Shown here in pieces: positions 21,822 through 40,868 of a stretch of 64,000 bases of DNA. Every line of letters starts with the position of its first letter. Positions within the stretch are counted from its first letter, which is position 1. Below the pieces are notes generated by a model. The model made no database searches. It saw nothing but the letters and a program-made list of their open reading frames with translations, and was not told where the DNA came from. A program made the position numbers and the translations under genes. The stretch is from Clostridiales bacterium (GTDB lineage: Bacteria > Bacillota > Clostridia > Oscillospirales > CAG-272): positions 13,516-77,515 of the forward strand of contig JAAZAV010000003.1 in the NCBI GenBank assembly GCA_012514145.1, in the 5' to 3' direction.

Positions 21822-23255
21822 ATGCACAAACGTATCGCTTCAATTCTGCTTGCCCTGCTTATGGCGCTGACCGCCCTCACCGCCTGCGGAGGCGGCTCGG
21901 GCAGCGGCTCTGATGTGACCGCCGCCGGTTCGGATGTCGCCGAGACGGTGACCGAGCCTGTTGTGACCGCCGACCCCACCAGAATCCCCCCGGATTTCAA
22001 GGTCAACTTCGACGGACAGGTCTATAAGATTTTCAACGGCTACTCCAAGGAGACCAAATACATCAGCCGCGATATCTATCCCGAGGAGATAACCGGCGAG
22101 TCGCTCAACGACTCCATGATCGAGCGCTGCACCGCCACCGAGGAGAAGCTGGGCTGCGTCATAGAGGTCACCGACGGCGATCTGGGCCGCATAAAGAGCA
22201 ATGTGGCGGCGGGCGACGACTTCGCCCATGTCACCTATGTGGACCTGAGCAACATAATGAACATGGTGGTGTCGGGCTACTGCCTCGACTTCTACGACAT
22301 GCCCAACATAGAGTTAAGCAAGGTATGGTGGGACCGCAACGCCGAGGCGAAGCTCTCCTTCCAGGGGCAGCTCTATTACACCTTCAATGACTCTATCTTC
22401 ACCCACATGGACAACTGCCGCGCCGTCTACTTCAACAAGCAGCTTGTCAATGACTTGGGGCTTGGCAACCTCTATGAGAAGGTGGAGGACGGCACCTGGA
22501 CCATGGCCGAGATGTTCCGCTGCGGCGTCGCCGCCGTAGCCGACCTTGACGGCAACGGCGTCTGGAACAACCAGGATCGCTACGGCACCCTTATGTGGGG
22601 CGTGACCGGTATCGGCGAGATGCTGCTCACCGGCTGCGACAGCGAGATCATGCTCCAGGGCGACGACGGCAACCCCTACTTCTACTGCTTCACCGAGCGC
22701 TTCGCCGAGATATATGAAAAGGTGCTGGACTTCATTAAGAAGGATCACAACTACTTCACCAGCGATGTCAACGCCTTCATGAACGGCAAATCCCTCTTCT
22801 TCGGGGCGGCGCTGAACAGCACCGGACCCATGAGAGCCATGGAGACCGACTTCGGCATTCTCCCCGCTCCCAAATATACCGAGGATCAGGAGAAATACTG
22901 GAACGTCTCCCCCAACGCCCACGCGATGATGCTCCCCGTCACCATCACCGACACCGAGTTCGCCGGCACGGTCATGGAAGAGCTGGCATACCAGTCAAGC
23001 ATCTCCCTTCTGCCCGCCTACTTCGACATAATGCTCAAGGGCAAATCCGCCCGCGACGAGGAGTCGGAGGCCATGCTCGACCTTATCCACGACAGCATTT
23101 CATATATCATCAAGATAATCGGCGTCAAATTCTCCGACAGCATCTACAGCGAAATGTCAAAGGGCAACTATGCCATATCCTCCTTCCTCGCCTCCAAGCA
23201 GGAGAGCGTGGAGCTGGAGCTTCAGAACGTGCTCGATCAGTTTGCCGGTGGCTGA
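21822..23255 (+). CDS. Extracellular solute-binding lipoprotein (paralogue of 13962-15443)
   Basis: Lipobox LTAC, G/S linker, shared internal blocks with the other SBP. Confidence 0.75.
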   Translation: MHKRIASILLALLMALTALTACGGGSGSGSDVTAAGSDVAETVTEPVVTADPTRIPPDFKVNFDGQVYKIFNGYSKETKYISRDIYPEEITGESLNDSMIERCTATEEKLGCVIEVTDGDLGRIKSNVAAGDDFAHVTYVDLSNIMNMVVSGYCLDFYDMPNIELSKVWWDRNAEAKLSFQGQLYYTFNDSIFTHMDNCRAVYFNKQLVNDLGLGNLYEKVEDGTWTMAEMFRCGVAAVADLDGNGVWNNQDRYGTLMWGVTGIGEMLLTGCDSEIMLQGDDGNPYFYCFTERFAEIYEKVLDFIKKDHNYFTSDVNAFMNGKSLFFGAALNSTGPMRAMETDFGILPAPKYTEDQEKYWNVSPNAHAMMLPVTITDTEFAGTVMEELAYQSSISLLPAYFDIMLKGKSARDEESEAMLDLIHDSISYIIKIIGVKFSDSIYSEMSKGNYAISSFLASKQESVELELQNVLDQFAGG

Positions 23256-24232: not shown

Positions 24233-26419
24233 CTATTTGTCGCTAATCCCGCATTCGTAGAGTCCGGTGATCTCTCCGCCCAGCTTTGCGGCGTAATCGT
24301 GATAGAAGTATATCGGTATCGCCGACCAGGCGTGGCAGAGGCTTCCCGCGTCGCCGAAGGCAAGGGCGCCGTCGATGGTCTCCCAGAAAGTGGTGGCGTT
24401 ATTCGAGAGCATATGCCCCCACTTGCCCGCGATGTCGCCGAAGACATACCGGGCGTATTGCTCGGGCTCCTGCATAAGAGCTTCGTATTTGAATATGCTG
24501 TGGGACAGGGTGACGGGTATGAGCGTCTCGTCTTTAAGAGCCTTCAGCACCCGCCTTTCGCGCCCCTCATGCTCCCCGGCGGCGCCGCAGCAGACGATAA
24601 GCGCGTTGGTAAGTTCGGCGTAGTGGAAGCGCTCAAGTTCTGCGTCTTCAGCCGTCGGCAGCGGCACGCCCGCTCCCCTGATGTAGGAGGCATATGCGCC
24701 CTTATCCGCATCCCAGAAGTACCTGTTTATCGCCTCGTTGAGAGCGAAGTGGGCGTCAACATAGGTCTGTGCCTTCTCGTATTCTCCCAGCGCCGCGCAG
24801 ATGTTGCCCAGGGAATTGAAACCCATTGACACGAAGGCGCAGAGCGGAGCGTCGAAGGTCATTTTCTCCGGCGGCACGCTGCCCGAGATGGAGCCCGACA
24901 GTCCTGTCTGCCATTCGTAGAAGTTCCAGTATTGAGGCTCGGCATAGCAGGTTAAAAGTCCCTGCCTGTTGCCGAGGCGGCGCATAAAGCCCTGTGCTAT
25001 TGTCTCAAGGGCGGGAAAAATCTCCCTCAGGAAATCCACGTCCCCCGAATACTGTAAGTATTCCGCCGCCTGGGTGAGGAATATGGCGGTAAACGAGGGT
25101 ATGGTTATCGCCACCCGGGCGGGTGAGCAGAGTTCCAGCATGTCGTCATCCCGCAGCGACTGCGCCATCAGACGGATCGACGCCTTGGGGAAGTCGTACT
25201 CATCGAAGGCATAGTAGCCGCAGAGCATCTGATTCCGGGAGTCCATGGAGTAGAGCGCCTGCTCGCGCCAGGGGCAGTCCTCGTAATGCTCGTGCATACA
25301 CATGAGCAGCGTGCGGCGGCTCACCTCGTCGATCTTCGTGTGCAGGCTGTCGGCGCAGGAGAAAACCTTCTCGCTTCCCAAGGGATAATCGGTGGTGCGG
25401 ATGCCGGCGTAGAAGATATTCGCCGATTTCGCGTATATATGAAGCTGCATATATCGCATACCGAGGCGGCGGAAGGTGTGGATAAACCTGTTCCGTCCGG
25501 CGCGGGCATGATAAGAGGCGCAGAAGTTCCGGCCGCCCACATAGGCGCGTACCCGCATGTCCTCCAGATGCTCGCCCCAGCCCACAAGTATCTCGCAGTC
25601 ATTTTCGAGTTCGATGTCCAGCGACAGCACGCCGGCGTTCTCCCTGCCGGTGTCTATTAAAGCAAATATGCCCTGACTGTCCTCGGGCGCGGTGAGTTTT
25701 ACTCCCCGCTCCGAAGGCAGGCGGCGGGTGTGGCTTATGCCGCCGTAGGCAAGCGCCGCATACTGCATGCGCTGACCCAGTGTGCCGCCGGATTTCGCCT
25801 CGGTGAAGCCCCCGTTTACCGTGAGCAGCACCGGCTCGTCGTCTCCGACTATGAGTTTCTTAATCGGGCGGGCGCGTACCGGCTTCGCTTTGTCGGTCTG
25901 TATGACCTTTCGGGTGTTCGCTCTCGGATCGATGCGTTCGTCGCAGCGGAAGGAATAGCCGAGCTGTCCCGAAACCTTCTCCACTCCGGCGCCCATGGTG
26001 TAGCGGGTGTCGGCATAGCCGCCCAGAGCGGTCGAACTGGCGGCAAGAATGGCGTGCTCGCCGCTGCCGGTATCCTTTTCCTGGGTCAAAACATAGATAA
26101 GTCCCGCCGTCTCGCCCCTTATAGTGCTGCTGTCGTCGCCCTGATGCCAGCAGCGTATCTCCACCTCGTTCTCCCCCGCCTTCAGCGCGGCGGTGATGTC
26201 AAGCACATCGTAAACCTTGTCGAAGGGGTAGTCGGCAAACTGCCCGAACTCGTTGAGTTCGCCGTTTATGTAAAGGGCGTAGTTGGTGTCAACCGAAATG
26301 TAGAGCGTGCAGCGTCCGGCCGCCGGATCGGCGCTGACGGTATCGATAAATGTTGCGTAGGCGTTTACCTTTTCGATATCTTCAAGCCATATCCATTCGG
26401 CCTTGTCAAAGAGTTTCAT
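24233..26419 (-). CDS. GH78-like alpha-L-rhamnosidase family protein (six-hairpin glycosidase)
   Basis: N-terminal KAEWIW motif, central HEHYEDCPWREQALYSMDSR block typical of the Bac_rhamnosidase catalytic domain. SD GGGAGG upstream. The start overlaps the preceding gene by 14 nt. Confidence 0.7.
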   Translation of the reverse strand: MKLFDKAEWIWLEDIEKVNAYATFIDTVSADPAAGRCTLYISVDTNYALYINGELNEFGQFADYPFDKVYDVLDITAALKAGENEVEIRCWHQGDDSSTIRGETAGLIYVLTQEKDTGSGEHAILAASSTALGGYADTRYTMGAGVEKVSGQLGYSFRCDERIDPRANTRKVIQTDKAKPVRARPIKKLIVGDDEPVLLTVNGGFTEAKSGGTLGQRMQYAALAYGGISHTRRLPSERGVKLTAPEDSQGIFALIDTGRENAGVLSLDIELENDCEILVGWGEHLEDMRVRAYVGGRNFCASYHARAGRNRFIHTFRRLGMRYMQLHIYAKSANIFYAGIRTTDYPLGSEKVFSCADSLHTKIDEVSRRTLLMCMHEHYEDCPWREQALYSMDSRNQMLCGYYAFDEYDFPKASIRLMAQSLRDDDMLELCSPARVAITIPSFTAIFLTQAAEYLQYSGDVDFLREIFPALETIAQGFMRRLGNRQGLLTCYAEPQYWNFYEWQTGLSGSISGSVPPEKMTFDAPLCAFVSMGFNSLGNICAALGEYEKAQTYVDAHFALNEAINRYFWDADKGAYASYIRGAGVPLPTAEDAELERFHYAELTNALIVCCGAAGEHEGRERRVLKALKDETLIPVTLSHSIFKYEALMQEPEQYARYVFGDIAGKWGHMLSNNATTFWETIDGALAFGDAGSLCHAWSAIPIYFYHDYAAKLGGEITGLYECGISDK

Positions 26420-27446
26420 CGGTTTTTCCTCCCGTTTTGTTGTCTTTCATTGCGATGTAAAAGCAGCCGGGGGCGATATCCGGCGATGGGTGATTTTCAT
26501 TCAGCCATGCGCGGATATTGAAGCAGAGGGCGCATTTCGTTGCGTACCCTCCCCCGTCGGGCGTGAAGCCCAGACCGGCGGCGTATTCGTACAGCGCCCC
26601 GATGCCGCCGCCGAGCAGCCGGGCAAATGCCGGATATCTGCCGCGGTCGACCCGAGCCGCTAAGAACTCATCCAGCGGAAGCGCCAGTCCCGGGCAGCCC
26701 GAGGGCACCACATTGCCGTAAAGGTCGATGTGGCAGTGCCGGGGGCTGAGCAGATTGCAGGTCTCCCCGTCTTTTATGAACGCCTGAGCCGTCCGCTTCG
26801 GGTATATTCCCCCGGCTATTTCCAGCGCCCTGCCGTTCATGCCGATGCCGTATTCCCGGGCGGTGGCGGCCACATAGTCGTCCCCCAGGATTTCGCATAA
26901 TTCCTCATGGCTGTACGTACGGCCGTGATCGAGTTTGTAAAGCCGCCGCAGATAGCGCTCCTGCCAGATGAAGTAGTCCAGCCCTTCTTCCCGCAGCAGC
27001 TTACAGAGAAGCAGCACCCTCCCCAGCGGCACGAACTCGATGTGGAAAGGGTCCACCGAGGGCATGACGGTAGTCACGCCCAGTTTTCGGAGCCGTCTCA
27101 GCCGTCTGCGGACAAAGCTCTCCTTAACTGCCCAGAAGGCGTTGGTCTCGATGTAGTCGATGCCGATTCCCCGCTTCCCCAGCGCCTCAATCAGCCCGCA
27201 GAGAGCGGCGAAGTTGATAAACGGCTCTCCGCCGCCGATATGCACCGAATCCACCCCCGCGGCCGACAGCTTTTCGGCAAGCTCGCCGGCTTTCTCCCGG
27301 GTGATGAAGTCGCGCATTCCCCCGACGCCGCGAAGACTTTTGCTGTATCGGTAGGAAGAAAACATACAGTGCCGGCAGGCGGCGGTACATATATAGTTTG
27401 TTATAATCCCCGAATACATCGGGGTGTTTGCCCGACCTCTTATCAC
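26406..27446 (-). CDS. Radical SAM protein (non-PflA type), with C-terminal Cys-rich region
   Basis: CTAACRHC = CxxxCxxC at residues 20-27 (DNA 27366-27389), GGGEP SAM-binding motif, extra cysteines CNLLSPRHCHIDLYGNVVPSGC and CALC. The GTG start overlaps the upstream stop (GTGA). Confidence 0.8.
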   Translation of the reverse strand: MIRGRANTPMYSGIITNYICTAACRHCMFSSYRYSKSLRGVGGMRDFITREKAGELAEKLSAAGVDSVHIGGGEPFINFAALCGLIEALGKRGIGIDYIETNAFWAVKESFVRRRLRRLRKLGVTTVMPSVDPFHIEFVPLGRVLLLCKLLREEGLDYFIWQERYLRRLYKLDHGRTYSHEELCEILGDDYVAATAREYGIGMNGRALEIAGGIYPKRTAQAFIKDGETCNLLSPRHCHIDLYGNVVPSGCPGLALPLDEFLAARVDRGRYPAFARLLGGGIGALYEYAAGLGFTPDGGGYATKCALCFNIRAWLNENHPSPDIAPGCFYIAMKDNKTGGKTDETL

Positions 27447-28681
27447 TTGGCGGTCACAAGTACCCCGCCGCAGGAGGCAATTTCAAAGGAATAGACTCCG
27501 TCCTCCGATCTTAGAAGGGGAATATCCGACCCGGCGGTCAGTTTCACCGAACAGCCGTCGGCGGCGCGGAAGGTCACCTTATGCATACCCGGAGAGGTGT
27601 CATAGGGGTCGGCGGCAGAGCAGACAAAGAGAGCCGCTCCGCTGCAGCCGCTCCGCGGCGCCATCTGCCCGACTATCAGCGGAGAGCCGTCCCCGGCTTT
27701 GAAGTCGAAGAATACGCCGGTATCCAGCGAGTCGACGGCCTTATAGCCGAAGGAAGCGGTACGGGCGAAGTCCTCCCTGCCCCCGAAGCCCACAAAATGG
27801 GTTGAGACGCGGCGGAACTTCATGTATTCCTCGCTCAGCGCGCGAAGCTCGGCGTTGACCGTCTTTAACTTTTCGTACTGCTCTGTTTTCTTGCCCTCTC
27901 CGTCAAGCACCTGATTATGCCACCAGCCGGCGGTGTAGCATGCCCATATGATATTCTCCGCGCCGAACGCCAGGGAGGAATATGCCTGCATACGCAGCTG
28001 GTTTTCGGTTATCCACTTTTCGGGATGCAGCGAATTTACCTGCAGCACTATCCACATGCCGCGTCCGGTATTCCGGCAGGCATCGGCGACTATCGCCAGA
28101 TTCTCATAATGCCCGGCTACCGACGCCGAATACATGTAGAAGTCATAGCAGATGTAGTCGGACGCCACACATTGGCAGTAGCGCTCGATATGCTCGGCAT
28201 AGGTGGCGGTGCCTAATTGGTTAACCGTCTCGGTATCGTTGTTTTTCGCCACCGAGGCGTAATTCGGATAGAGATTCAGATAGGCGAACTGATTGGGGAA
28301 TAGCCGCTCCATGCGGTTGAGAACTTTGCCGTAATGGGGGAAGTCAAGCGCCGAAGGCTCGTCTCCGGCGTCGATGCCCCAGATCGCCGGATGGTCGGCA
28401 AAGGAAGCCGCGGCGGCATCGTATTTTTCGAGGGGATTTGTCGCCGCCATTTTGCCGGCGTTGTCGCCGTCGCCGCCCCACCAGCCGGGAACGACACCGC
28501 TCACTATGGCGCCCACACCGTATTTCTCAAACAGGTCGAGCGCCGGGCGGTCGTTGCCCATGCAGACGACAAAATCTATGCCGCATTCGCTTAACTCCTT
28601 TATGTGCCGCTCGCTGCGGGCATAGGGCTGGAGTATATAGGTTCCTACATTGAGCCTGCTTCTGTCCATGCGTCTGTTCAT
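27443..28681 (-). CDS. Hypothetical protein, possibly a clan GH-A-like TIM-barrel glycoside hydrolase with a C-terminal beta-sandwich
   Basis: IDAGDEPS and NLYPNY blocks are reminiscent of GH42/GH5-type acid/base regions. No signal peptide. Weak assignment. Confidence 0.35.
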   Translation of the reverse strand: MNRRMDRSRLNVGTYILQPYARSERHIKELSECGIDFVVCMGNDRPALDLFEKYGVGAIVSGVVPGWWGGDGDNAGKMAATNPLEKYDAAAASFADHPAIWGIDAGDEPSALDFPHYGKVLNRMERLFPNQFAYLNLYPNYASVAKNNDTETVNQLGTATYAEHIERYCQCVASDYICYDFYMYSASVAGHYENLAIVADACRNTGRGMWIVLQVNSLHPEKWITENQLRMQAYSSLAFGAENIIWACYTAGWWHNQVLDGEGKKTEQYEKLKTVNAELRALSEEYMKFRRVSTHFVGFGGREDFARTASFGYKAVDSLDTGVFFDFKAGDGSPLIVGQMAPRSGCSGAALFVCSAADPYDTSPGMHKVTFRAADGCSVKLTAGSDIPLLRSEDGVYSFEIASCGGVLVTAK

Positions 28682-28697
28682 ATATCATTCTCCCGTT

Positions 28698-29717
28698 TCA
28701 AAGTATTGTTTTCAGTGCTTTCATCACCTCATCCGCGTAGATGCGGTGGCCGAGGTTGTTCACATGCCAGTTGTCGGCAAAGAGCCGTTCAAAGCGCTCC
28801 GCCTCGCCGAGTCCGGCAAGCTCCCGCTCCATGGCGGCGTTGGCGTCCGCCATAATCAGGGGACAGTTAATCTTCAACCCCACGGCCGCCCCGCGTGAGG
28901 CTTCGATGAAGTCGTTGTAGGGCGAATCGTTATGGGGCATCGCCTGTGCGCCGCACACCGGCGACACGGTTAGCAGTATGACAGCCCGTTCGGCGATCCC
29001 GCCGAATTTCACCAGCAGCCGGGCAAGGTTCTCCCGGTAGGTCTCGGGGGTGCAGCGGGTGAGCCAGTCGTTTATCGTATGGGCTTCGGCTGCAACAATG
29101 TGCGGTCTGAACACTTCCGCGCAGTAGGGGAAACATGTGTCAGCCATGCGAACCGTGCTGCAGCAGCCAACTCCCTGGCGGATGACCGCGTACTCCCCCG
29201 CGTAGCGGGCTGCCGATTCGATCAGCACCTCGCCGCTTATAGGGGCGACGGTCACGCTCCCGCCCGCTTCCAGCCATACGGGAATGTCGAAGAAGGACAG
29301 CTCGCCGTATCGGGGCTGCTTTACCGCAAGGGTCAGTTTTTCATCCCGCCCGGGCGAAGTCAGCCGCACCTCGGCGGGCTCTGTACGGGCGGCGAACCGC
29401 AGGGTGTAGAACGAATCGCGCGACTCATCGCCCTTCAGGGTAATCGGCTTTGTCACAATGGCGCAGCCGGAGCGGGTGTCAAGCACGAACATCCCCGCAA
29501 GACGGTCGAATGTTAATTCAACCGATTCGCTGCCGGTGAGCTTATCCACTTCCTCGCGCACAAGGTTCACATAGTCGCGGCCGTAAAAACGCATGTTGCG
29601 CCCGATGCCCTCACCGTTGTATGGATTGTACGCCACGCTTTCGTCGGTCATCGTGAAGCCGTCGGCTCCCTGCCCGCAGGTGTGGGAATCGCCGGTGAAG
29701 AGGATGATTTTGACCAT
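28698..29717 (-). CDS. SGNH/GDSL family hydrolase (esterase/deacetylase)
   Basis: Block I ILFTGDSHTCGQG, block V DNWHVNNLGH (DxxH). Confidence 0.8.
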   Translation of the reverse strand: MVKIILFTGDSHTCGQGADGFTMTDESVAYNPYNGEGIGRNMRFYGRDYVNLVREEVDKLTGSESVELTFDRLAGMFVLDTRSGCAIVTKPITLKGDESRDSFYTLRFAARTEPAEVRLTSPGRDEKLTLAVKQPRYGELSFFDIPVWLEAGGSVTVAPISGEVLIESAARYAGEYAVIRQGVGCCSTVRMADTCFPYCAEVFRPHIVAAEAHTINDWLTRCTPETYRENLARLLVKFGGIAERAVILLTVSPVCGAQAMPHNDSPYNDFIEASRGAAVGLKINCPLIMADANAAMERELAGLGEAERFERLFADNWHVNNLGHRIYADEVMKALKTIL

Positions 29718-29720
29718 ATG

Positions 29721-30815
29721 TTATACCAACAGAGCCTTGGTTGTGCGCCGCGCCTCAAGGTCGGCGTAGGCTTCGTTTATCTTCTCAAGGGGATAGTCTG
29801 TGGCGGTGGCGGCAATGGCGGCATGCAGCTCGGGATGCTCACAGAGGAAGTCGACATAGGCGTAGACGTCGGAGAATGAATACTGTGAGGAGCCTATGAT
29901 CCGCAGCGCGTTGAAGGTGATAAGATGTGGCTCGATCGCCACCGGTCCACGGTCGGAATACTGCCCCGGAACGAGGTAGACACCGCGGTTGCGAAGCAGT
30001 CTTATGCCGAAGGGCAGAGCATTTGCCCCTCCGCTCGCCTCTATTACAAGATCCGCGCCCAGTCCGCCTGAAAGCTCTTTGACGACAGCGGTTATCTTCT
30101 CCTCGCCGTCACCGGCAAGTGAATACACCTGTTTCAACCCAAGGGAGGCAAGCATTGCGCGCTTTCCGTCGTCGGGTCTGCCCGCGGTGACAAGCAGCAG
30201 GTTCGGCACCCCGGCGGCGGCAAGATACATAGCCGCGAAGCAGCCCACGGCGCCGCTGCCCTGCACCACCGCCACATTCACGCTATCAAGCGACAGTCCC
30301 GCGCCGGCGCCGAGTTTGAACGCATGCATACAGGTGGGACCGGCGCAGGCGAACACCGCCGCGGTCCTGGGGTTGACGGCGGCGGGAATCCTGATAAGAT
30401 TCGACACCGGCGCATAGCACATTCTGCCGTAGCCGCCGTGGAAATGTGGGATTTCGGCGGGGTCGCCGCTGTTTGTCACCCCCATATTCACGCAGTTGGC
30501 GTCGTCGCCCGTTTTGCAGAGCAGGCACTCGCCGCAGGGAACGGCAATGTCGGAGATGACGTAATCCCCCACAGCCAGACCGTTGGTGTCGCCCTCGCCC
30601 AGCGCCTCAACTTTTCCGACAAACTCATGGCCGATAATGCGATCGGGGGTTGAGCCAAGTCTGCCGCTGTGAATGTGCAGGTCCGTGCCGCAGATTCCCG
30701 ACGCCACAAGGCTCATGGCGGCGGTTCCGGCGGAGGGCTTTGTCACCGGGTACTCTCGAAGCTCGAAGGGCTTGTCAATTCCCGTGAATATAGCTGCATA
30801 TGATGTTTTATTCAT
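29721..30815 (-). CDS. Zinc-dependent medium-chain alcohol/polyol dehydrogenase
   Basis: GICGTDLH, GHEFVGKV, structural-zinc CGECLLCKTGDDANC and a GSGAVG Rossmann motif. Confidence 0.9.
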   Translation of the reverse strand: MNKTSYAAIFTGIDKPFELREYPVTKPSAGTAAMSLVASGICGTDLHIHSGRLGSTPDRIIGHEFVGKVEALGEGDTNGLAVGDYVISDIAVPCGECLLCKTGDDANCVNMGVTNSGDPAEIPHFHGGYGRMCYAPVSNLIRIPAAVNPRTAAVFACAGPTCMHAFKLGAGAGLSLDSVNVAVVQGSGAVGCFAAMYLAAAGVPNLLLVTAGRPDDGKRAMLASLGLKQVYSLAGDGEEKITAVVKELSGGLGADLVIEASGGANALPFGIRLLRNRGVYLVPGQYSDRGPVAIEPHLITFNALRIIGSSQYSFSDVYAYVDFLCEHPELHAAIAATATDYPLEKINEAYADLEARRTTKALLV

Positions 30816-30872: not shown

Positions 30873-32978
30873 TCATCCGTGCTCGGTGCGTTTCAGAATG
30901 TCCTCCTGGACGTCGCGCCCCAGGTGGATATAGTATGCCGAGAAGCCCGACACCCGCACCACAAGCGAGGCGTATTCGGAGGGATTCTCCATGGCGTCCT
31001 TCAGCACGGCGCGGGAGACCGAGTTTATCTGCATCTCCTGACCGCCGAGGCTAAAATAAGTGCGGATTATCGACGCCAGCTTTGCGCGCCTGTCGTCGTC
31101 GGAGAACATCTCGGGGGAGTACTTCTGATTTACCACCGTGCCGCAGGCGGCGTAGGTGTAGTCGGGGCGGGACAGGGAGCGCACCGCCGCGGTGGGTCCC
31201 TTCTTATCTCTGCCGTGCATGGGAGAGGCGGCGTCGCTGATCGGCTCGTGGGCTTTGCGCCCGTCGGGAGTGGCGCCGATCTCTCTGCCCGCGCCGATAT
31301 TGGCAACGTTTGAGGCGATGGCTATGTAGAAGCCGCCGCCGTCCCGGGTCTTGTGATTTTTGAAGATATTGTAGTGAAATTCGTTGAACCAGACGGCGTA
31401 CTTGTCCACCTCCGGCTCGTCGTTGCCGTACTTGGGGAGCCCCAGAAGCAGCTGCCGCTCCTCCTCATAACCCTCGAAGTCGGCTTTCAATATGTCGCGC
31501 AGATGTTCGAGGGTGAAGAGCCCGCGGTTGTATACCGCCTCCTCTATCGCATAGAGCGAGTCCGCCATGGTGGCGATGCCCATGGCACAGGCGCCGTGTA
31601 CCGAAGGGTACTTTGTGCCGCCCCGGTTTATATCAAGCCCCCGCTCGATGCACTCGGGACAGCCGCAGGACAGGAAGGGCTGCTGATAGTTCTTATAGTC
31701 GTAGCGCTCGTTCTCGTTGCGGAAGCGGCGCACATATTCGTCTGCGCCGTGCTTCATCTGAGCCTCCAGCGCCGCCATGAAGTCGCCCATGGTCTTTAGT
31801 TCCCCGGCGGGCGGAGTTTCCACGCCGAAGGATTTCCCGTCGAAGCCGAAGCCGCCGCAGAGGGCGCGCTCGATATAGACGGGAGAGTTGTAGCGGCCGT
31901 CCGACCAGGGCGGCTGCTTGCCGGGCAGGAAATTCTCGATACAGCCCACCATGCAGTAATCCCTGGCGTCCTCAAGCTCGTAGCCGTAGCGCATGAGGGC
32001 GGGGATATTCACCTCGTCGTTCATCAGCGCCGGATAGCCGAGACCGGTGCCGATTACCTTCAGACATTCGTCGAGGAAGCGGGGTTCGGCGTCCTTGTGG
32101 AGCCGCGCCGACAGGTTGGGACCGGGAATGTTGCAGCGCCGCACCGCCTCCAGCACCGCATAGGTCAGGTCGGTCACCGCGCTTTTGCCGTCCTCCCGCT
32201 TAACGCCGCCGATGGCGATGTTGCAGACGTTGTCGCCGCCGAAATAGCGGGATTCGCCTATTTTCAGCAGGGTGCAGGCGAGATAATCCACCGCGCTCTC
32301 GTAATCCAGTCTCCCGGCGGCTGTGTCCGCCTCATAGTAGGGGTAAAGATAGCGGTCAAGCCTCCCCAGAGCCTGGGCATAGCGCCCCTCAAGGTAGTAG
32401 ACCGTGTGCACCAGCCAGACGAACTGCAGCGCCTGGGGAAAGGTTTCGGGGGGCTTATCCGCGATATGCCGGCAGTTGGCGGCGATCTCTTTCATGCCTT
32501 TAGCCTCCGCGTCGGCGGCATATGACAGGGCATGGCGGGAGAATGCCTCCATGGTTATCCGGGCGGAGCGCAGGAAGTCCTGCTTCTCGGGCTCCTTGTG
32601 ACGCTCGAGAGAAGCGTCGATGTCGGCGATGATGCCGCCAATACCTCTCGACAGCATGTAGGGATAGTCGGGGGCGAAATGGTCGGCGTTTGTGCCGAAG
32701 TGGTTGCGGCCGTAGGAGTTCACCATAGAGTCGGCGTAAGCGCCGAGATTGTCCGCGTCATGACCGAAAAAGCCGCGTATGGTGCCGGCTATAAGGTCGT
32801 TTGCGTAGACCGGCGTCGCCGTTCCGTCGAGCAGCGACGCGAAGGCATAGGCTCTGCCGATGACATTCGCATCGTTCAGGTGCTCACGGTAGCCCTTCCA
32901 CATAAGATAATTGCGCAGGCAGCCGCCCTCGGGTCGTTTGTTGACCTCTGAGCGGAGCGCCTCAAGTCGTTCTGACAT
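30873..32978 (-). CDS. Glycyl radical enzyme (PFL2/dehydratase-lyase type), unusually short at 701 aa
   Basis: Glycyl loop VVRVSGFSAYY (Gly678, DNA 30945-30947) 24 aa from the C-terminus. Thiyl loop MVGCIEN (Cys346 at DNA 31941-31943, Glu348). SD GGAGGAAAA upstream. Confidence 0.9.
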   Translation of the reverse strand: MSERLEALRSEVNKRPEGGCLRNYLMWKGYREHLNDANVIGRAYAFASLLDGTATPVYANDLIAGTIRGFFGHDADNLGAYADSMVNSYGRNHFGTNADHFAPDYPYMLSRGIGGIIADIDASLERHKEPEKQDFLRSARITMEAFSRHALSYAADAEAKGMKEIAANCRHIADKPPETFPQALQFVWLVHTVYYLEGRYAQALGRLDRYLYPYYEADTAAGRLDYESAVDYLACTLLKIGESRYFGGDNVCNIAIGGVKREDGKSAVTDLTYAVLEAVRRCNIPGPNLSARLHKDAEPRFLDECLKVIGTGLGYPALMNDEVNIPALMRYGYELEDARDYCMVGCIENFLPGKQPPWSDGRYNSPVYIERALCGGFGFDGKSFGVETPPAGELKTMGDFMAALEAQMKHGADEYVRRFRNENERYDYKNYQQPFLSCGCPECIERGLDINRGGTKYPSVHGACAMGIATMADSLYAIEEAVYNRGLFTLEHLRDILKADFEGYEEERQLLLGLPKYGNDEPEVDKYAVWFNEFHYNIFKNHKTRDGGGFYIAIASNVANIGAGREIGATPDGRKAHEPISDAASPMHGRDKKGPTAAVRSLSRPDYTYAACGTVVNQKYSPEMFSDDDRRAKLASIIRTYFSLGGQEMQINSVSRAVLKDAMENPSEYASLVVRVSGFSAYYIHLGRDVQEDILKRTEHG

Positions 32979-33028
32979 TTTATTTTCCTCCGTTGCGGGT
33001 TTCGGATGCGGTTATTTACATCTTAATC

Positions 33029-33057
33029 ATTATATCAGATATTCCCCGTTCTGTCGA
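33029..33057 (-). promoter_or_regulatory. Sigma-A-like promoter TCGACA-17-TATAAT for the glycyl radical enzyme operon
   Basis: -10 at 33029-33034 and -35 at 33052-33057 on the minus strand, about 50 nt upstream of the GRE start. Confidence 0.55.
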
Positions 33058-33175: not shown

Positions 33176-33198
33176 AAAAAATGACAAGGAGTGACGGC

Positions 33199-36100
33199 AT
33201 GAAAAAAATAATATTATTTGGCATCATATTTTTGCTGACGCTGACGACGCTGGCGGGATTTTTGCTGTTATCCTGCAGCCCGGAGGGCGGCGAAACAACA
33301 AACGAAAGTGAGGTTACAGCCATGCAGACCACACAGAAGATCACGATTCCCGACGCAGAGGTGACGAAGCGCCCCGCTTCCTACCTGCTGCTCCACGACA
33401 CCTCCTACAACGGGGCAAAAGAGGGTATACGCTCGGGCTGGCGCTATGACTGCCGGGGCGGTATACCCGCCGAGGAGCTGAAACTGAACTACGGCACCCT
33501 GACCGACATAAGCACCGAATACGGCACCGCCATGATACGCGAATTCAACCGCATCGACTCGGGCATACTGATGCTCGAGACCTCGGTTTCGCTCACCGGC
33601 GGCTTCGACGGGTTCTCGCTGGAGTTCCGCAACGACGCCGATGAGCCGGTGTATAAGCTGATAACCCGTAACGGCGGCTGGTGCGCGGCAACCGACAGCG
33701 GCGAAGTGCCGATCGAGGGCGCCTCGGGGCGCGAGTCTTACAGCTTCCGGGTTTTCATCGACTTTGACCGGGGCGAGAGCATTACATATATTGACGGGGT
33801 ACAGAGAGACAACCGTTCGCTGATAAAATTGGGACCTGCCGCCAATATTCTGAACTTCCGCTTCGCCACCGACGAGGCAAGCACCGCCATCGCGACTCTC
33901 GGCGGGATACGCATCACCGCCAACTACGCCGTGAACGAGGACTTCGGAACCCACCCCGAGGGCAGCCTCGGCTTCGGCTGGCAGGGCGAGGGCGCGGCTG
34001 CATCCGGCGGCATGCTCAAAGTGACATCGGGTTATGCAAAGCGCTCCTTTGAGCCGGTGGGAGGCGTGGTTTCGCTGCTCACCGAATTCAACCTTACCAG
34101 AAGCCAGGCGATAACCGTCACCGCGGCGGCCGGAGGCGAGCCGGTGGTGTCATTCACCACCGATAAAATCGCTTTCAACGCCAACGGCAGCGAGATTTAC
34201 ACTCCTTACATGCCGAATCTCTGGTACCGGCTGCGCATGGACATCGACACGGCGGCGTCATCGGCGCTGATATGGATAAACGGCAGGAAAACAGCCGAAG
34301 TTCCACTGCTTGCCGTGACAAATCATATCGACAGCGTGCGCATTGAGAATTCCGACAGCTCTCCGGTGAGCTTCGACGGCGTGTCGGTGTTCGAGAAGAT
34401 ACTCGCCGACGACTACCCCGCCGCACCCGTAAAACCGGCGGGCGAGAGCGAATATACCGTGGGCATGAACGTCTGCTCCCTCTGGAAAGAGGGCACCCAC
34501 TGGGGCTGGAGCTGCGTCTCGGCATATGAGGATCCCGAGCCGGTGTTGGGCTACTACGATGAGGGCGTGCCCGAAACCGCCGACTGGGAATTAAAGTATA
34601 TGGCCGAGCACGGCATCGACTTCCAGGCGTTCTGCTGGTACGCCACCGCTTCCGACGCTCCGCTGAAAGCCGGCCACCTTGCCGCCCAGCTGCACGACGG
34701 CTACATGTACGCCGAGTACAGCGACGCGGTGAAGTACTGCCTTATCTGGGAGTGCCAGAACGCCGCCCGACCCTCGAATTTCAACTCATGGCGCGACTAT
34801 TTCGTGCCCTATCTGCTTGAATATTACATCAAGGACAGCCGCCATATGGTGATTGACAATCAGCCGGTGCTCTGCGTTTTCGGCGCGGGACGGCTCAGCG
34901 AAACCCTGGGCGGCGAGGCAAATGTCAAAAAGTGCTTCGACTATCTCGAGGAAGAGGTGCGCAAGCTGGGCTTTGACGGTATGATCTACCTCTCCTGCGG
35001 CTCGGCGTCCGATTCGCTTGCCAAGATGGGCTTTGACGGCAGCTATGCCTATAACTGGGGTACCTCGGGCTGCGAGCTTGCCACCAACGTAAACGGCATA
35101 CTGAACAGCGCCCGCAACAAGTCGATGTATACAGTTCCCACCATAAGCGTGGGCTTCAACAGCATCCCCTGGCACGGCATCCGCTACCCGATGATGACGG
35201 TTGAGGACTTCAACGCCGCCCATACCTGGGTGCGCGATGAATATCTGCCCAAGTACGCGGATAAAGACAGCTGGCAGGACAAGTTTGTCATGCTCTCCAC
35301 CTGGAACGAGTACGGCGAGGGAACCTATATCATGCCCTCGGCGGGCAACGGCGGCTTCGGCTATCTTGACGTTATCCGTTCGGTTTACGCCGGCGCCGAG
35401 CCGGACGAGAGCCTGAACACCGTCCCCACCGCCGCCCAGAGGGAGCGGATAAATCACCTTTATCCCCAGTACCGGCGGCTGCTGCGCAAGACCGGCTACT
35501 ACTCCGAGACGGTGGACGTGTCGGCCCTCACCCCGATATTCGAGATTGATTACAGCTCCAAGGCTGATGTATCGGTCGGCAGCGCGCTGAATCCGGTGTT
35601 CGCCGCCGACGGGCTCAGCGGCACGGTAAACGGCGACACGCTTATTATTAAGAGCGGCATCAGCGTCAAGGCCTCCGAATCGCCCTATATTCGGGTGACC
35701 CTGGACGTGCCGAAGGGCACCCCCTGCGAAGTGTTCTACATCACCGACAAGGACACCTCCTGGACGCAGAACAAGAGCGCCCAGTTCACCGCCAAGGGCG
35801 AGGGGCTCACCGAGTATCTCATAAACATGAGCGAAAAGAACCTGTGGCGGGATACCGTTGTGGGCTTCCGCGTCGACCCGGGTCAGACGGCTGCCGGCGC
35901 CGGCGACCCCGAACACAACTACTTCCGGCTGGTCAAAGCCGAGTTCCTTAACTGCCCCGAACGGCCTTCCCGCACCATATATATAAACGGCCGCGAATGT
36001 GAACTGCAGCTTTGGCCCGAGCTGTCGGAGAAGGGCGAAATCCTCATCTCCTGGGACGGCAGGGTGGCGCTTCACTACCGGCTCAGCGCCTTTGATACCT

Positions 36101-36795
36101 GGGATTATGCCGCAAAGACTCTCACCATCGAGATGAACGGCCATACCGCCGTATTCACCGTCGGCAAGGACAGCTGGACGCTGGACGGCGAAACCAGACA
36201 GCTTGGCTATCCCCTCTACGCCACAGACGGACTGCCCATGCTGCCCCTCGCCGATCTCTGCGAGGCGGTGGGCTACGCCTGTTCGCTCAACGAAAAGGGC
36301 GAGCTGTGTATCGACACGCCGCTCAAAGCCCACTATGAGCATGTGGGGAGCCGGATAAAGGGTCAGTGGGAGTTCGACACTCTCGGCGACACCGAAGGCT
36401 GGAGTTCATCACACATGTCGCTGTTCGTCTCGGGCGGCGGACTTACGGTCAACTCTATCTCCGACACCACCGATCCCATAATCTCCTACGGCGGGGATAT
36501 CGACCTCACCGCCTCCGAATACACCGCCCTTGAGGTGCGCTGCCGCTACAAGTATACTTCGGCATACGCCCAGCATATTTCGGTCTACTTCACCACCGAC
36601 AGCGACGGCACCATGAGCGAAACCATGTCTATAAAACTGCCCATGAGCTCCACCGATTCGGGCGGCGAATGGGAGACCCTGCGCGCCGACCTTACCGCCA
36701 TTCCGTCATGGAAGGGCATTATCAAGCAGCTGCGCTTCGATCCCTTCAACGCGGTGGGCAGCATGGAGATCGACTATATCCGATTCGTCAGATAA
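33199..36795 (+). CDS. Large surface lipoprotein with a central WbsX/GH99-like domain and a copper-amine-oxidase-N-like (stalk) domain
   Basis: Lipobox LLSC after a hydrophobic signal. LGYYDEG..HGIDFQAFCWY and STWNEYGEGTYIMPS blocks (WbsX/GH99-like). YINGRECEL...LPMLPLADLCEAVGY (Cu_amine_oxidN1-like). Confidence 0.6.
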   Translation: MKKIILFGIIFLLTLTTLAGFLLLSCSPEGGETTNESEVTAMQTTQKITIPDAEVTKRPASYLLLHDTSYNGAKEGIRSGWRYDCRGGIPAEELKLNYGTLTDISTEYGTAMIREFNRIDSGILMLETSVSLTGGFDGFSLEFRNDADEPVYKLITRNGGWCAATDSGEVPIEGASGRESYSFRVFIDFDRGESITYIDGVQRDNRSLIKLGPAANILNFRFATDEASTAIATLGGIRITANYAVNEDFGTHPEGSLGFGWQGEGAAASGGMLKVTSGYAKRSFEPVGGVVSLLTEFNLTRSQAITVTAAAGGEPVVSFTTDKIAFNANGSEIYTPYMPNLWYRLRMDIDTAASSALIWINGRKTAEVPLLAVTNHIDSVRIENSDSSPVSFDGVSVFEKILADDYPAAPVKPAGESEYTVGMNVCSLWKEGTHWGWSCVSAYEDPEPVLGYYDEGVPETADWELKYMAEHGIDFQAFCWYATASDAPLKAGHLAAQLHDGYMYAEYSDAVKYCLIWECQNAARPSNFNSWRDYFVPYLLEYYIKDSRHMVIDNQPVLCVFGAGRLSETLGGEANVKKCFDYLEEEVRKLGFDGMIYLSCGSASDSLAKMGFDGSYAYNWGTSGCELATNVNGILNSARNKSMYTVPTISVGFNSIPWHGIRYPMMTVEDFNAAHTWVRDEYLPKYADKDSWQDKFVMLSTWNEYGEGTYIMPSAGNGGFGYLDVIRSVYAGAEPDESLNTVPTAAQRERINHLYPQYRRLLRKTGYYSETVDVSALTPIFEIDYSSKADVSVGSALNPVFAADGLSGTVNGDTLIIKSGISVKASESPYIRVTLDVPKGTPCEVFYITDKDTSWTQNKSAQFTAKGEGLTEYLINMSEKNLWRDTVVGFRVDPGQTAAGAGDPEHNYFRLVKAEFLNCPERPSRTIYINGRECELQLWPELSEKGEILISWDGRVALHYRLSAFDTWDYAAKTLTIEMNGHTAVFTVGKDSWTLDGETRQLGYPLYATDGLPMLPLADLCEAVGYACSLNEKGELCIDTPLKAHYEHVGSRIKGQWEFDTLGDTEGWSSSHMSLFVSGGGLTVNSISDTTDPIISYGGDIDLTASEYTALEVRCRYKYTSAYAQHISVYFTTDSDGTMSETMSIKLPMSSTDSGGEWETLRADLTAIPSWKGIIKQLRFDPFNAVGSMEIDYIRFVR

Positions 36796-36804
36796 GGAGA
36801 GCTT

Positions 36805-38157
36805 ATGAGCAGCGTTACACTGAAAATAAACCGCGAATATGTATGTGATGTGCTGGTCTGCGGCGGAGGCGTCTCCGGCTTCTCGGCGGCGGTATCGGCT
36901 GCAAGGAGCGGCGCCGACGTGATTTTGGTGGAGCCGGGCGGCTTTCTCGGCGGCACGGCAACAAAAGGCATGGTGGGTCCCTTCATGACCTGCTACGACG
37001 CCGCCGGAAAAAACCGCATCATCCGCGGTCTGTTTGAGGAACTTGTGGAGCGGCTGGTGAGCGAGGGGGGCGCGGTGTCATACCTCGACTGCCCCGGCTC
37101 GGACAGCCGCAGCGGCTACCGCACTTCCGGACACATCGGCGTCACACCCTTCGATATCGAGGCGCTCAAGCGGGTAACCGAGGCAATGTGCCTTGAAGCC
37201 GGCGTTCGCCTGCTTTACCACAACACGGCGGTTGGCTGCGACACCGACGGCGGCCGCCATATCACCCGGGTCTACACCGCCGACAGCGAGGGCATCAATG
37301 CCATAGACGCCTTGGTATTCATCGACGCCACCGGCTGTGCGGCGCTGGCTGCCAAGGCGGGCGCCGGCACCATGCGGGGCGACGAGGACGGCTTCGTCCA
37401 GACTTCATCCATGTTCTTCACCATATCGGGCGTTGATAAAGAGGAGCTGGACAAACACATGTACCTCGACGGCGACATGCGCCGCCGCTTCTACATGGAC
37501 GAGATTGAGGAGGCGAAAAGCGAAGGCCGCTTCTCGGGCGGCACGCTGAAACTCCGCATCTTTGAGGGACTTGGCGGAATCTGGGTAGTCAACATGGCTC
37601 AGCACGACGACCCCTACAACGAGCTTGACAGCGGGGAGCTGACGAAGGTCGAGATATCCCAGCGGCTGCAGATACTTCAGATATTCAACTGGATGAAAGA
37701 GACGGTGCCGGCTCTCAAAAACATAAAGTTAGTCGCCACCGCCTCCGACATGGGCATACGGGAGAGCCGCCGCATTATCGGCAGGAAGATATTCACCGGC
37801 GAGGACATTATGAACGCCGTCCTCTTCGACGACCGGATAGCCGTCTGCGCCAACTCCATCGACATTCATCAGAAGGTGGGCGTCAGCTACAGCACTTATA
37901 AAGCCGAAAGCAATTACAGCATCCCTCTCGGCGCACTGATTTCCCGGGATATCGACAACCTTATGGCGGCGGGCAAGTGCCTGTCTGCCGACAAGTACGC
38001 CTTTGCCGCGGTTCGGGTCATGCCCCCCTGCATAGCCATGGGTGAGGCTGCCGGCATAACAGCAGCGATAGCCGCCCTTGACGGTATCGATGTCTGCGAT
38101 GTCCCCGCCGAGTCGGTTCAGGTCGAGATCGCCGCGAGAGGAGGTTATCTGGAATGA
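36805..38157 (+). CDS. FAD-dependent oxidoreductase (FAD_oxidored/PF12831-like)
   Basis: VLVCGGGVSGFSAAVSAARSGADVILVEPGGFLGG dinucleotide-binding motif; 9-nt gap after the lipoprotein gene. Confidence 0.75.
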   Translation: MSSVTLKINREYVCDVLVCGGGVSGFSAAVSAARSGADVILVEPGGFLGGTATKGMVGPFMTCYDAAGKNRIIRGLFEELVERLVSEGGAVSYLDCPGSDSRSGYRTSGHIGVTPFDIEALKRVTEAMCLEAGVRLLYHNTAVGCDTDGGRHITRVYTADSEGINAIDALVFIDATGCAALAAKAGAGTMRGDEDGFVQTSSMFFTISGVDKEELDKHMYLDGDMRRRFYMDEIEEAKSEGRFSGGTLKLRIFEGLGGIWVVNMAQHDDPYNELDSGELTKVEISQRLQILQIFNWMKETVPALKNIKLVATASDMGIRESRRIIGRKIFTGEDIMNAVLFDDRIAVCANSIDIHQKVGVSYSTYKAESNYSIPLGALISRDIDNLMAAGKCLSADKYAFAAVRVMPPCIAMGEAAGITAAIAALDGIDVCDVPAESVQVEIAARGGYLE

Positions 38158-39489: not shown

Positions 39490-40857
39490 TTACTCCCGCG
39501 TTTCAAAATATTCGGCAAGCCGGGCGGCAAGCAGCTTCGAGAAAGCCGTGCTGCCCTTTGTGTTCATGTGTCCCCAGTCGGAGAAATTGGTGTGGTCGGC
39601 GTTTATCTCTCCCGCCAGCTCAATGTTGTAGTTGAAGAAGGTTATCCCACGGGCTTCGGCTATCTCCTCAAGGCGCCTGTTGCCCATATCGTCCATGCTC
39701 CTCGCCCGTCTGCCCTCGATATACTCGGGGCATTCTACAAAGACCACATGAATTCCGTAATCCTCGAACACATCCAGCAGCCGGTCAAGCGCCGCCCACT
39801 GATCCTCTTTCAGGTCGCAGGGCTGATCCTTGGCTCTGCCGTTGTAATCGGCTTCCCAGGGCACATAGCCCTTGTAGTATTCGCTGGTTATGTTGTTGTC
39901 CTTGTCCACCTGCCGCTCGTGGACATAAACCGGGACTTCGGGCAGCGGCGCGTCTGAATCGATGTCGTCAGCCGTCTCCTCCTGCCCTTCGGCGGCGGGG
40001 AGCGCGTCCGCGTCCCTTCCCCCGATATACCAGCCCAGCATCTCGGGTATGCGGTCGCGGGAGTAGATGACGGGTATGCGGTTGAACGCCCAGGTCAGCA
40101 CTTCGTCAAGGTCCAGCCAGTTGATTTTATCAGCCCGCGTGGCTTCTTTTTCGGCTTCGGCCGCCTCCTGAGCCGCTAATTTTTCTTCAATCTCGGCGGC
40201 GCGTTCGGCGTCCTCTGCCTGCATGAGTCGGGTCTTGCGGATCTTGCGCATTATAGCCGCCGGACAGTCGGGGTTGGTGTCAAAGTCAATCCGCCTCCAC
40301 AGCCAGCCGTCGTCGCACATGAACCAGTCGACCGAAAAGACTATCGTTTCGGGTATCGGGTAGCCCGATTCGAGAAACACCTTCCACCAATCTAAATAAT
40401 ACTTCGGATTCGATCCGTTCAGGGCGAAGTTGAACCAGGAGCGCCGGGGTATGGCTTCTTCGAGATATTTCGGGTTGATGCCGTGAGCCGCGTGGGAGGT
40501 GCCTATGATTATGGTGTCGGCGTTATACAGGTTCTCGAACATCTCGTAGAACTGGCCGTAGTAGTGGTAGCAATGGCGGGTCTTGTATTTCTGATAGAAC
40601 TGCTCGTACTGCTCCGCCTTGCGCACGGCGGCTTCTGCCGCCAGACGAGCGGCCTCGGCTTCGGTTTTCGCGCCGGCAAGGGCTGCTTCGGCTGCGGCGG
40701 CACGGGCGGCAGCCTCCTCCACCACCGCCAGTTCGGCGTCAAGAAAGCCCTGCATGGCGGCGTTCAGCCCGAACACCATGAGAAAGGCGGCTGCCGTCAC
40801 GATAAGCCCCTTAATGAAAAATTCGGGCAGTGATTGTAATTCGTGTTTTTCTGTCAT
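39490..40857 (-). CDS. Membrane-anchored DltD/AlgJ/SGNH-like partner of the MBOAT O-acyltransferase
   Basis: One N-terminal TM helix, an Ala/Glu-rich coiled segment, IIIGTSHAAHG and a C-terminal SDWGHMN (DxxH-like) block. Sits 11 nt downstream of the MBOAT gene. Confidence 0.45.
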   Translation of the reverse strand: MTEKHELQSLPEFFIKGLIVTAAAFLMVFGLNAAMQGFLDAELAVVEEAAARAAAAEAALAGAKTEAEAARLAAEAAVRKAEQYEQFYQKYKTRHCYHYYGQFYEMFENLYNADTIIIGTSHAAHGINPKYLEEAIPRRSWFNFALNGSNPKYYLDWWKVFLESGYPIPETIVFSVDWFMCDDGWLWRRIDFDTNPDCPAAIMRKIRKTRLMQAEDAERAAEIEEKLAAQEAAEAEKEATRADKINWLDLDEVLTWAFNRIPVIYSRDRIPEMLGWYIGGRDADALPAAEGQEETADDIDSDAPLPEVPVYVHERQVDKDNNITSEYYKGYVPWEADYNGRAKDQPCDLKEDQWAALDRLLDVFEDYGIHVVFVECPEYIEGRRARSMDDMGNRRLEEIAEARGITFFNYNIELAGEINADHTNFSDWGHMNTKGSTAFSKLLAARLAEYFETRE

Positions 40858-40868
40858 AATTTACCCGC

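Follow-up and report, generated by a model that had tools for sequence, protein, structure and literature searches.

The window analysed here, a 64,000-nucleotide stretch of Clostridiales bacterium DNA (contig JAAZAV010000003.1 of assembly GCA_012514145.1), encodes on its minus strand a compact, oxygen-sensitive glycyl radical enzyme (GRE) of 701 amino acids (aa). The enzyme is an uncharacterised variant inside a well-known superfamily, a good target for enzyme discovery rather than a categorical surprise, and the conserved compact clade of which it is a member is widespread among uncultured Clostridia from guts and digesters. It is read here, with a probability of roughly 0.55, as a functional radical dehydratase of the Cys-x-Glu (CxE) class acting on a larger carbohydrate-derived hydroxy compound, with the dehydration coupled to carbonyl reduction. 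The gene, its catalytic elements, the site of its main deletion and its upstream signals are as follows (evidence in brackets).

30873..32978, minus strand: compact GRE with PFL-like and Gly_radical domains, 701 aa (open reading frame list, Pfam, homologues, model).
30939..30956, minus strand: Gly loop RVSGFS, residues 675-680, with Gly678 as the predicted radical site; none of the six residues varies among 46 family members (alignment, script-checked numbering).
31935..31946, minus strand: Cys loop GCIE, residues 345-348, with Cys346 as the predicted thiyl-radical residue and Glu348 as the predicted general base, within the invariant MVGCIENF (alignment, numbering script).
32679..32684, minus strand: the invariant pair Asp99-His100, with His100 at the position of His164 in glycerol dehydratase (GD), for which a role as proton donor to the leaving hydroxyl is proposed (alignment).
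32703..32762, minus strand: short linker, residues 73-92, in place of a ~74-aa segment (YbiW ~85-158); the main compacting deletion (profile alignment, MAFFT).
32987..32991, minus strand: Shine-Dalgarno sequence GGAGG, 8 nt 5' of the GRE ATG (sequence).
33029..33057, minus strand: predicted sigma-70-like promoter TCGACA-17-TATAAT, 11/12 matches, TG-extended (sequence).

A preliminary description of this DNA, made from the letters alone, had proposed a 701-aa compact GRE, and Pfam recovered both the PFL-like domain (E 4.9e-123) and the Gly_radical domain (E 3.1e-29) in it. Its placement of Gly678 in RVSGFS and of Cys346 and Glu348 in GCIE was confirmed by a script, which located GCIENF (Cys346, Glu348), VRVSGFSAY (Gly678) and ADHFAPD (His100). 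The superfamily fingerprint RVxG[FWY] is present as RVSGF at residues 675-679, invariant in the 46 homologues, and the mid-protein catalytic Cys, which in the superfamily is apposed to the Gly loop inside a 10-stranded beta/alpha barrel, corresponds to Cys346, likewise invariant. The Cys-to-Gly spacing of 332 residues is, as had been claimed, near-identical in known enzymes (332 in CutC, 330 in GD), and the assignment to the CxE eliminase branch also holds, C346-I-E348 being invariant in the family. A Cys loop with C-x-E is the mark of GRE 1,2-eliminases and isomerases (2026 GRE review; HypD paper).

Alignment paired His100 with GD His164, Cys346 with Cys433, Glu348 with Glu435 and Asp360 with Asp447; in GD, the C1 hydroxyl loses its proton to Glu435 and the departing C2 hydroxyl receives one from His164 (2026 GRE review). 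The GRE is thus predicted from alignment to have the acid/base set of a dehydratase, in a pocket that is unlike that of any known eliminase. Relative to GD, His281 is replaced with Tyr200, Ser282 with Ala201, Tyr339 with Cys/Val252 and Tyr640 with Ala555, while Phe333 of the cap helix is retained as Phe246. At the GD 339 site the family has a one-residue deletion with the invariant Asp249 and Asn253 close by, and Asn557 lies near Ala555. Tyr200, Ala201, Phe246, Cys/Val252 and Ala555 vary little or not at all within the family, and the 16 pocket and loop residues that were looked at are invariant across its 46 members. In solved eliminases the pocket is shaped by the strand with GD 281/282, by Phe333 of the cap helix and by the sites of GD 339 (beta3) and GD 640 (beta8), and residues at these sites are named as substrate contacts of HypD (HypD paper). 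GD and 1,2-propanediol dehydratase (PD) are alike in the His, the Ser and the beta8 Tyr, the beta3 site being Tyr in GD and Phe in PD.

When these positions were checked against the known eliminases, the GRE differed from every one. Neither this difference nor the lack of an activase at the locus had been noted in the preliminary description. The residues by which glycerol, propanediol or choline is accommodated are exchanged for others that are invariant in the family, so the GRE would be none of the known eliminases, and its substrate is therefore a different and probably larger hydroxylated molecule. The exchange of two bulky Tyr residues for Ala and Val/Cys, together with the invariant Asp and Asn residues and the carbohydrate-related neighbours, suggests a larger carbohydrate-derived polyol or amino-polyol. 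The pocket signature of the tight family comprises D99-H100, Y200-A201, D249, N253, CIENF, W358-x-D360 and A555-x-N557. A core of it, namely D99, H100, A201, N253, C346, E348, F350, W358, D360, A555, N557 and N560, extends through the wider compact clade, where positions 200, 249, 252 and 349 are variable, and this core is shared neither by normal-length neighbours nor by YbiW.

In the proposed mechanism, a PflA-type activase would install the radical on Gly678, from which it would move to Cys346. The Cys346 thiyl radical would then abstract a hydrogen from the carbinol carbon of the substrate, Glu348 would deprotonate the hydroxyl of that carbinol, and His100, aided by Asp360, would protonate the vicinal oxygen leaving group. 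Water would be eliminated with formation of a carbonyl product, which the co-transcribed Zn-dependent alcohol dehydrogenase (ADH) would reduce, resulting in net reductive deoxygenation. Alternatively, the ADH might generate the hydroxyl substrate. Besides dehydration, some other cleavage of a C-O bond next to a carbinol would also agree with this reading.

The predicted fold is consistent with a working enzyme of this class. AlphaFold2 with the family alignment gave a model with a mean predicted local distance difference test score (pLDDT) of 90.5 and a predicted TM-score (pTM) of 0.91, in which the 10-stranded barrel, the cap helix, the Cys loop and the glycyl radical domain are all predicted to be present. 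DSSP placed strands of the first half-barrel at residues 100-102, 201-205, 251-257, 288-293 and 317-320, and of the second at 461-466, 549-554, 615-620 and 648-652; the Cys loop forms a hairpin (342-344/348-350), as does the Gly loop (673-676/679-682), and short helices lie between strands 2 and 3 at the expected site of the cap helix. The catalytic barrel had been expected to be intact, and in the model its strands stand at the expected positions. Foldseek against the PDB returned GD first (1r8w, TMq 0.90), followed by the propanediol dehydratases (9rco/5i2g), CutC, YbiW, HplG and HypD at 24-29% identity, with TMq of 0.82-0.90 to solved PFL-like GREs among the top 50 matches. Given these ranges, the GRE is about equally far from all characterised eliminases and isomerases. 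No NCBIfam cut-off was reached either: the scores were 451.5 bits against 678.2 for TIGR01774 (PFL2-3/glycerol dehydratase), 348 against 1050 for CutC TIGR04394, 342 against 1100 for HypD and ~315-335 against 1000 for HpfG/HpsG, and the HypD, HpsG/HpfG, HPAD, IAD and PFL equivalogs together gave 121-342 bits against cut-offs of 994-1150.

GD from Clostridium butyricum (DhaB1, PDB 1R8W/1R9D) is the best structural and second-best sequence match. The two enzymes have in common the CxE Cys loop, the RVxG Gly loop, the equivalents of His164, Asp447 and Phe333 and nearly the same Cys-to-Gly spacing, but they are only 28% identical, the GRE is 86 aa shorter, and just two of the six glycerol-binding residues (His164 and Asp447) are kept, whereas His281, Ser282, Tyr339 and Tyr640 are replaced. 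The operon logic of GRE, activase and alcohol dehydrogenase is also common to both, as the dhaB1-dhaB2-dhaT operon of Clostridium butyricum encodes GD, its activase and 1,3-propanediol dehydrogenase in parallel to the cassette described below, although the partner is a Zn alcohol dehydrogenase here and the Fe-type DhaT there. PD (Roseburia inulinivorans 5I2G; 9RCO) has the same fold (TMq 0.88-0.89) with CxE and His kept, but identity is 26-28%, the GRE is 95-140 aa shorter and without microcompartment context, and the His/Ser and Tyr pocket residues common to PD and GD are replaced.

These resemblances raise the question of whether the GRE is simply a short orthologue of the B12-independent GD or PD, with the ADH in the redox-balancing role of DhaT or propanol dehydrogenase. 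Such an orthologue would account for the leading structure and sequence matches, for a GRE-activase-ADH order that mirrors dhaB1B2T, for the conserved His100, Glu348 and Asp360, and for a transporter-free cassette, which fits a freely diffusing diol. It is nevertheless rather improbable in view of the TIGR01774 shortfall, the failure to reach any equivalog cut-off, the low identity, the lack of microcompartment genes and the invariant Tyr, Ala and Ala at the places of His281, Ser282 and Tyr640, with Val/Cys at that of Tyr339 (Phe in PD).

CutC was the top phmmer match (E 8.5e-102) and shares the CxE motif and a Cys-to-Gly spacing of the same length. Its trimethylammonium-binding residues are, however, not conserved here, since the Thr-Ser after Trp in CutC corresponds to Ser359-Asp360 and the aromatics of 'AGYQPFIN' are absent from 'GGDNVCN', and neither cut nor microcompartment genes accompany the GRE.

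YbiW/PflD, which open the ring of 1,5-anhydro-alditol-6-phosphates, resemble the GRE in CxE and His, in a small residue at the GD Tyr640 position, in a carbohydrate-related setting and in identity (29% to YbiW). A GRE isomerase of the YbiW/PflD/HplG kind would act on a cyclic ether or anhydro-sugar that carries no phosphate: after hydrogen abstraction and deprotonation by Glu348, a C-O bond of the ring would break, leaving a keto isomer for reduction by the ADH. The Ser of YbiW at the Tyr640 site, as expected for a sugar-sized pocket, would suit such a reaction, as would an identity as high as that to any eliminase and the GH31, GlgB-like and Gfo/Idh/MocA genes found in some loci. The YbiW pathway, however, proceeds through sugar phosphates followed by aldolase cleavage, with fsaA beside ybiW-ybiY in E. 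coli, while no aldolase, kinase or phosphotransferase system genes occur with the cassette. Moreover, 10 of the 14 compared pocket positions differ from YbiW, and YbiW itself has 810 aa and holds the segment ~87-150 that is deleted here. Isomerization is regarded as unlikely on these grounds, although sequence alone does not separate it from elimination.

A further comparison is offered by the aminoacyl radical enzymes (AAREs; Fu et al. 2024), which are likewise eliminase-like GRE homologues without assigned function, mostly from metagenome-assembled genomes (MAGs) of gut Eubacteriales. AAREs carry Ala, Ser or Thr at the radical site, in contrast to the invariant Gly678 in all 46 members of the present family. 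In the 2026 GRE review, the eliminases listed comprise six for C-O, one for C-N and three for C-S bonds, alongside three isomerases, and entire GRE clades are said still to lack experimental validation. None of the listed GREs matches the query family in length, pocket or cassette, and a literature search found no description of the compact GRE family or its cassette.

The solved eliminases and isomerases that match the query have 776-849 aa, so the GRE is 75-150 aa shorter than its characterised relatives. The missing residues had been placed at the N-terminus, which proved correct only in that all of the loss precedes the Cys loop: no N-terminus is truncated, and the deletion is internal. 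In the profile alignment, query residues 22-74 pair with E. coli YbiW 32-84, which means that the first helices are retained, and the main deletion of ~58-64 aa (YbiW ~87-150) lies directly ahead of the strand bearing His100. MAFFT alignment of 13 compact and 13 normal-length GREs opened a gap of 58 columns at YbiW 87-150 and two smaller ones, one of 4 columns near residue 129 and one of 9 near residue 246, all of them common to the whole compact clade. Pairwise phmmer comparison with GD, PD and CutC showed ~16 more residues to be absent from the helical hairpin 105-159, so that the smaller deletions amount to ~4-16 aa in this hairpin and ~6-9 aa near residues 243-246. Against GD the deficit is 86 aa (64 before His100, ~22 between His and Cys, none after the Cys loop), less than the 90-140 residues first supposed. 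The compact size goes back to the ancestor of the clade, in which a peripheral helical segment of ~58-64 residues, located after the N-terminal helices and ahead of the His100 strand, was lost; several smaller deletions shorten the protein further.

The start codon gives no occasion for a longer protein. The ATG is the first start codon past the upstream in-frame stop, and homologues of 701-704 aa cover 100% of the query in the alignment. The coincidence of the N-termini of homologues supports this start, and so does the fit of the Shine-Dalgarno sequence and the promoter-like site, as the preliminary description had also judged. A longer start upstream was ruled out on the same evidence.

Compactness is a property of the family as a whole. 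A search of 5.8 billion proteins with the GRE as query gave 1378 matches, the best 120 of which are 55-98% identical over 96-100% of the query and almost all 701-725 aa long, in agreement with the proposed compact subfamily. At least 120 clusters have 55-71% identity to the query, all of them with 701-725 aa. Relatives are encoded in 326 species-level genomes (one genome per species was scanned), nearly all of uncultured Clostridia. The best 80 of these genomes are all metagenome-assembled Clostridia (Oscillospiraceae, Christensenellales-like and 'Eubacteriales') from anaerobic digesters and from the guts of humans, chickens, ruminants and horses. According to HMMER over 1.84 billion cluster representatives, the tight family consists of three representatives at >=50% identity, surrounded by a wider clade of compact GREs (690-726 aa, 38-45% identity), and normal-length GREs of 780-825 aa start at ~34-40% identity to the query. 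The label 'unusually compact' is hence apt in comparison with characterised enzymes only, and not for a family found in 326 species-level genomes inside a wider clade of similar length. As the same length recurs throughout the clade, the shortness is ancestral. The alignment of 46 family sequences has a mean column identity of 62%, with D99-H100, R199, A201, D249, N253, MVGCIENF, QPPW and RVSGFS as invariant blocks.

The idea that the GRE is a decaying or non-functional remnant, shortened and orphaned from its activase and regulator, draws on the lack of a PflA-type activase and an AraC regulator in the window. It is largely refuted by conservation and retains hardly any credibility: the open reading frame is full-length, the catalytic motifs and the examined pocket residues are invariant in 46 members, the length is the same clade-wide, the model is confident, the promoter-like and Shine-Dalgarno sites are good, and about a third of homologous loci likewise lack an adjacent activase. 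A degraded gene was accordingly ruled out by the clade-wide conservation and the confident full-barrel model.

The genetic setting was compared across 79 related GRE loci, whose open reading frames were called and clustered, and cassette counts were taken from the 53 loci with >=1.5 kb upstream and >=3.5 kb downstream (at least these flanks). The most conserved partner is the Zn-dependent medium-chain ADH, present in 41 of the 53, followed by a canonical activase of ~300 aa with ferredoxin insert (34/53), a divergently transcribed AraC-type regulator (27/53), an SGNH hydrolase of ~330 aa (9/53) and a solute-binding lipoprotein of ~490 aa (6/53), the last of which occurs within or beside the cassette in 8 related loci. 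The conserved cassette thus consists of AraC regulator, GRE, canonical activase and Zn ADH, to which some loci add an Ape1-like SGNH esterase. Among relatives from the wider compact clade, the GRE lies beside Gfo/Idh/MocA and aldo-keto reductases and an activase. At one such locus (L100 3972-9157), the order is a 687-aa Gfo/Idh/MocA-aldo-keto-reductase fusion, an activase and the compact GRE P0125 (718 aa, 43% identical); the reductase partner belongs to another family, yet a reductase is still there. Another compact GRE, P0123, stands alone, with a Gfo/Idh/MocA gene nearby, and the contig of a third, P0127, is too short to show its setting.

In the window, the GRE is the first gene of an operon in which it is followed by genes for the ADH, the SGNH hydrolase, a 412-aa protein, a 346-aa radical S-adenosylmethionine (SAM) protein and a GH78-like glycosidase, with intergenic gaps of -14 to +57 nt. 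The downstream genes are as follows.

29721..30815, minus strand: Zn-dependent medium-chain ADH, 364 aa (Pfam, homologues, locus comparison).
28698..29717, minus strand: SGNH/GDSL hydrolase, 339 aa, with GDSH and DNWH motifs and an inserted beta-sandwich; found in a minority of cassette loci (Pfam, model).
27443..28681, minus strand: 412-aa protein with weak local similarity to GH42 beta-galactosidase, not conserved with the GRE (Pfam, PDB search).
26406..27446, minus strand: radical SAM protein, 346 aa, CX3CX2C, weakly YydG-like, not a PflA-type activase (Pfam, NCBIfam, homologues).
24233..26419, minus strand: GH78-like six-hairpin glycosidase, 728 aa, last gene of the operon (open reading frame list, Pfam).

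PDB sequence searches with the ADH, the SGNH hydrolase, the 412-aa protein and the radical SAM protein returned only generic or weak matches. The SGNH hydrolase has only 48 homologues in the 5.8 billion proteins; its model (pLDDT 96) is closest in fold to Ape1 (a peptidoglycan O-acetylesterase), YxiM and a CE2 acetyl-xylan esterase, the beta-sandwich being predicted to be inserted into the SGNH fold as it is in Ape1, and no signal peptide was seen in its N-terminal sequence. The Ape1-like O-acetylesterase, the sugar-binding lipoproteins, the glycosidases and the acetyltransferases point to a carbohydrate-derived polyol or amino-polyol, possibly from an acetylated precursor.

Acetyltransferases recur around the GRE in several forms. 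In two Christensenellales-like MAGs (L039 12770-14764 and L053 12815-14764), the cassette Zn-ADH is fused C-terminally to an AAC(3)-like N-acetyltransferase domain; a gene for an AAC(3)-like domain lies nearby in three further loci, and an Eis-like GNAT occurs in five, once inside the cassette. The window itself holds a separate AAC(3)-like gene at 19008-19865 on the plus strand (Pfam Antibiotic_NAT, E 3.9e-35), ~10 kb from the GRE. These genes, and the several invariant Asp residues that align with pocket positions, could be explained by a lyase that cleaves a C-N (or C-S) bond in an amino alcohol or amino sugar, with Asp99, Asp249 and Asp360 binding the ammonium group and the N-acetyltransferases handling the amine. 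This is very unlikely, as the acetyltransferases occur in a minority of loci only, the CutC equivalog score falls far short (348 vs 1050), and position 100 is a dehydratase-like His, in place of which CutC has Asp216 and the sulfonate lyases have Gln or Arg.

Several points weigh against a radical dehydratase of a larger carbohydrate-derived compound. The mapping of the pocket rests on sequence alignment and assumes substrate-pocket roles for GD His281, Ser282, Tyr339, Tyr640 and Asp447. A Pfam census of 118 cassette-flanking genes, made to infer the substrate, revealed no family with more than 5 matches and nothing conserved beyond the core, the matches being mostly assorted glycosidases, sugar isomerase-like TIM barrels and GNATs, and no transporter, kinase or aldolase was consistently linked to the GRE in the compared loci, which also fits a small diffusible diol. 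Neither a PflA-type activase (tblastn best E 0.66) nor an AraC homologue was found in the 64-kb window, so GRE activity in this organism would depend on genes beyond it. Finally, the helices ahead of the barrel make a conserved dimer interface in GREs (2026 GRE review), and the deletion may bear on this interface.

The activase for the GRE is probably encoded elsewhere in the genome, given the activase-less window, the third of homologous loci in the same situation and the closest relative (L002/L009), where the activase lies 6 kb away. The latter stands beside a second GRE of 661 aa (L002/L009 4145-6130, minus strand), which is 29% identical to the query and adjoins the 253-aa activase; its Gly loop reads VVRIWGWSAYF (RIWGW, not RVxG[FYW]) and its Cys loop AACWEF. 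No second GRE was found in the 64-kb window.

The radical SAM gene of the operon shares 4 nt with the gene before it and 14 nt with the GH78-like gene after it. Its product was considered as a non-canonical activase and rejected: it has no PflA signature and no homologue in the 79 GRE loci, and its homologues are not linked to GREs. Its family has >500 Clostridial homologues of ~326 aa (e.g. L093 7001-7978 and L097 7001-7990), and their genes are found immediately upstream of a GH92 gene or, in L097, beside a WbsX-like gene of 1194 aa, so that radical SAM enzymes and glycosidase-like genes look like a recurrent pairing. A homologue of the 1194-aa protein is encoded in the window upstream of and divergently from the GRE (33181-36795, plus strand), as a 1204-aa lipoprotein-like protein with WbsX-like and Cu_amine_oxidN1 domains, and is followed by a PF12831 FAD-dependent oxidoreductase (36805-38157, plus strand).

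Elsewhere in the window, two proteins of ~480 aa without Pfam match (13962-15443 and 21822-23255, both plus strand) are 27-30% identical to the solute-binding lipoprotein of the 8 GRE loci. At 39490-42377 on the minus strand, an MBOAT-family O-acyltransferase gene beside a weak DUF1574 match resembles an AlgI/AlgJ-like pair for polysaccharide O-acetylation, another acetyl-handling function.

A more specific proposal can be put forward tentatively, as a possibility well short of an even chance: the clade may carry out an undescribed GRE reaction, the radical dehydration or C-O cleavage of an unphosphorylated carbohydrate-derived polyol or amino-polyol, which the linked reductase would complete to a reductive deoxygenation, an electron sink for uncultured gut Clostridia, while enzymes handling acetyl esters and acetyl amides would feed or protect the substrate. 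In addition, the clade-wide deletion of ~60 residues ahead of the barrel could define a minimal scaffold in which the dimer interface or the substrate channel is altered.

No class of anaerobic radical enzymes is growing faster than the GRE eliminases, and every new assignment has opened a metabolic route in the gut, from choline to trimethylamine, through hydroxyproline, from isethionate to H2S and through anhydroglucitol. The compact clade is well defined and tractable, with its 326 species-level genomes from human, livestock and digester sources, an invariant pocket signature of its own and a simple cassette, and at ~700 aa it represents a naturally minimised GRE scaffold that may ease expression and engineering. 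Once its substrate is assigned, the known reactions of GREs would grow by one, and a function would be explained in bacteria of the Oscillospiraceae and Christensenellales that are known here from metagenome-assembled genomes alone.

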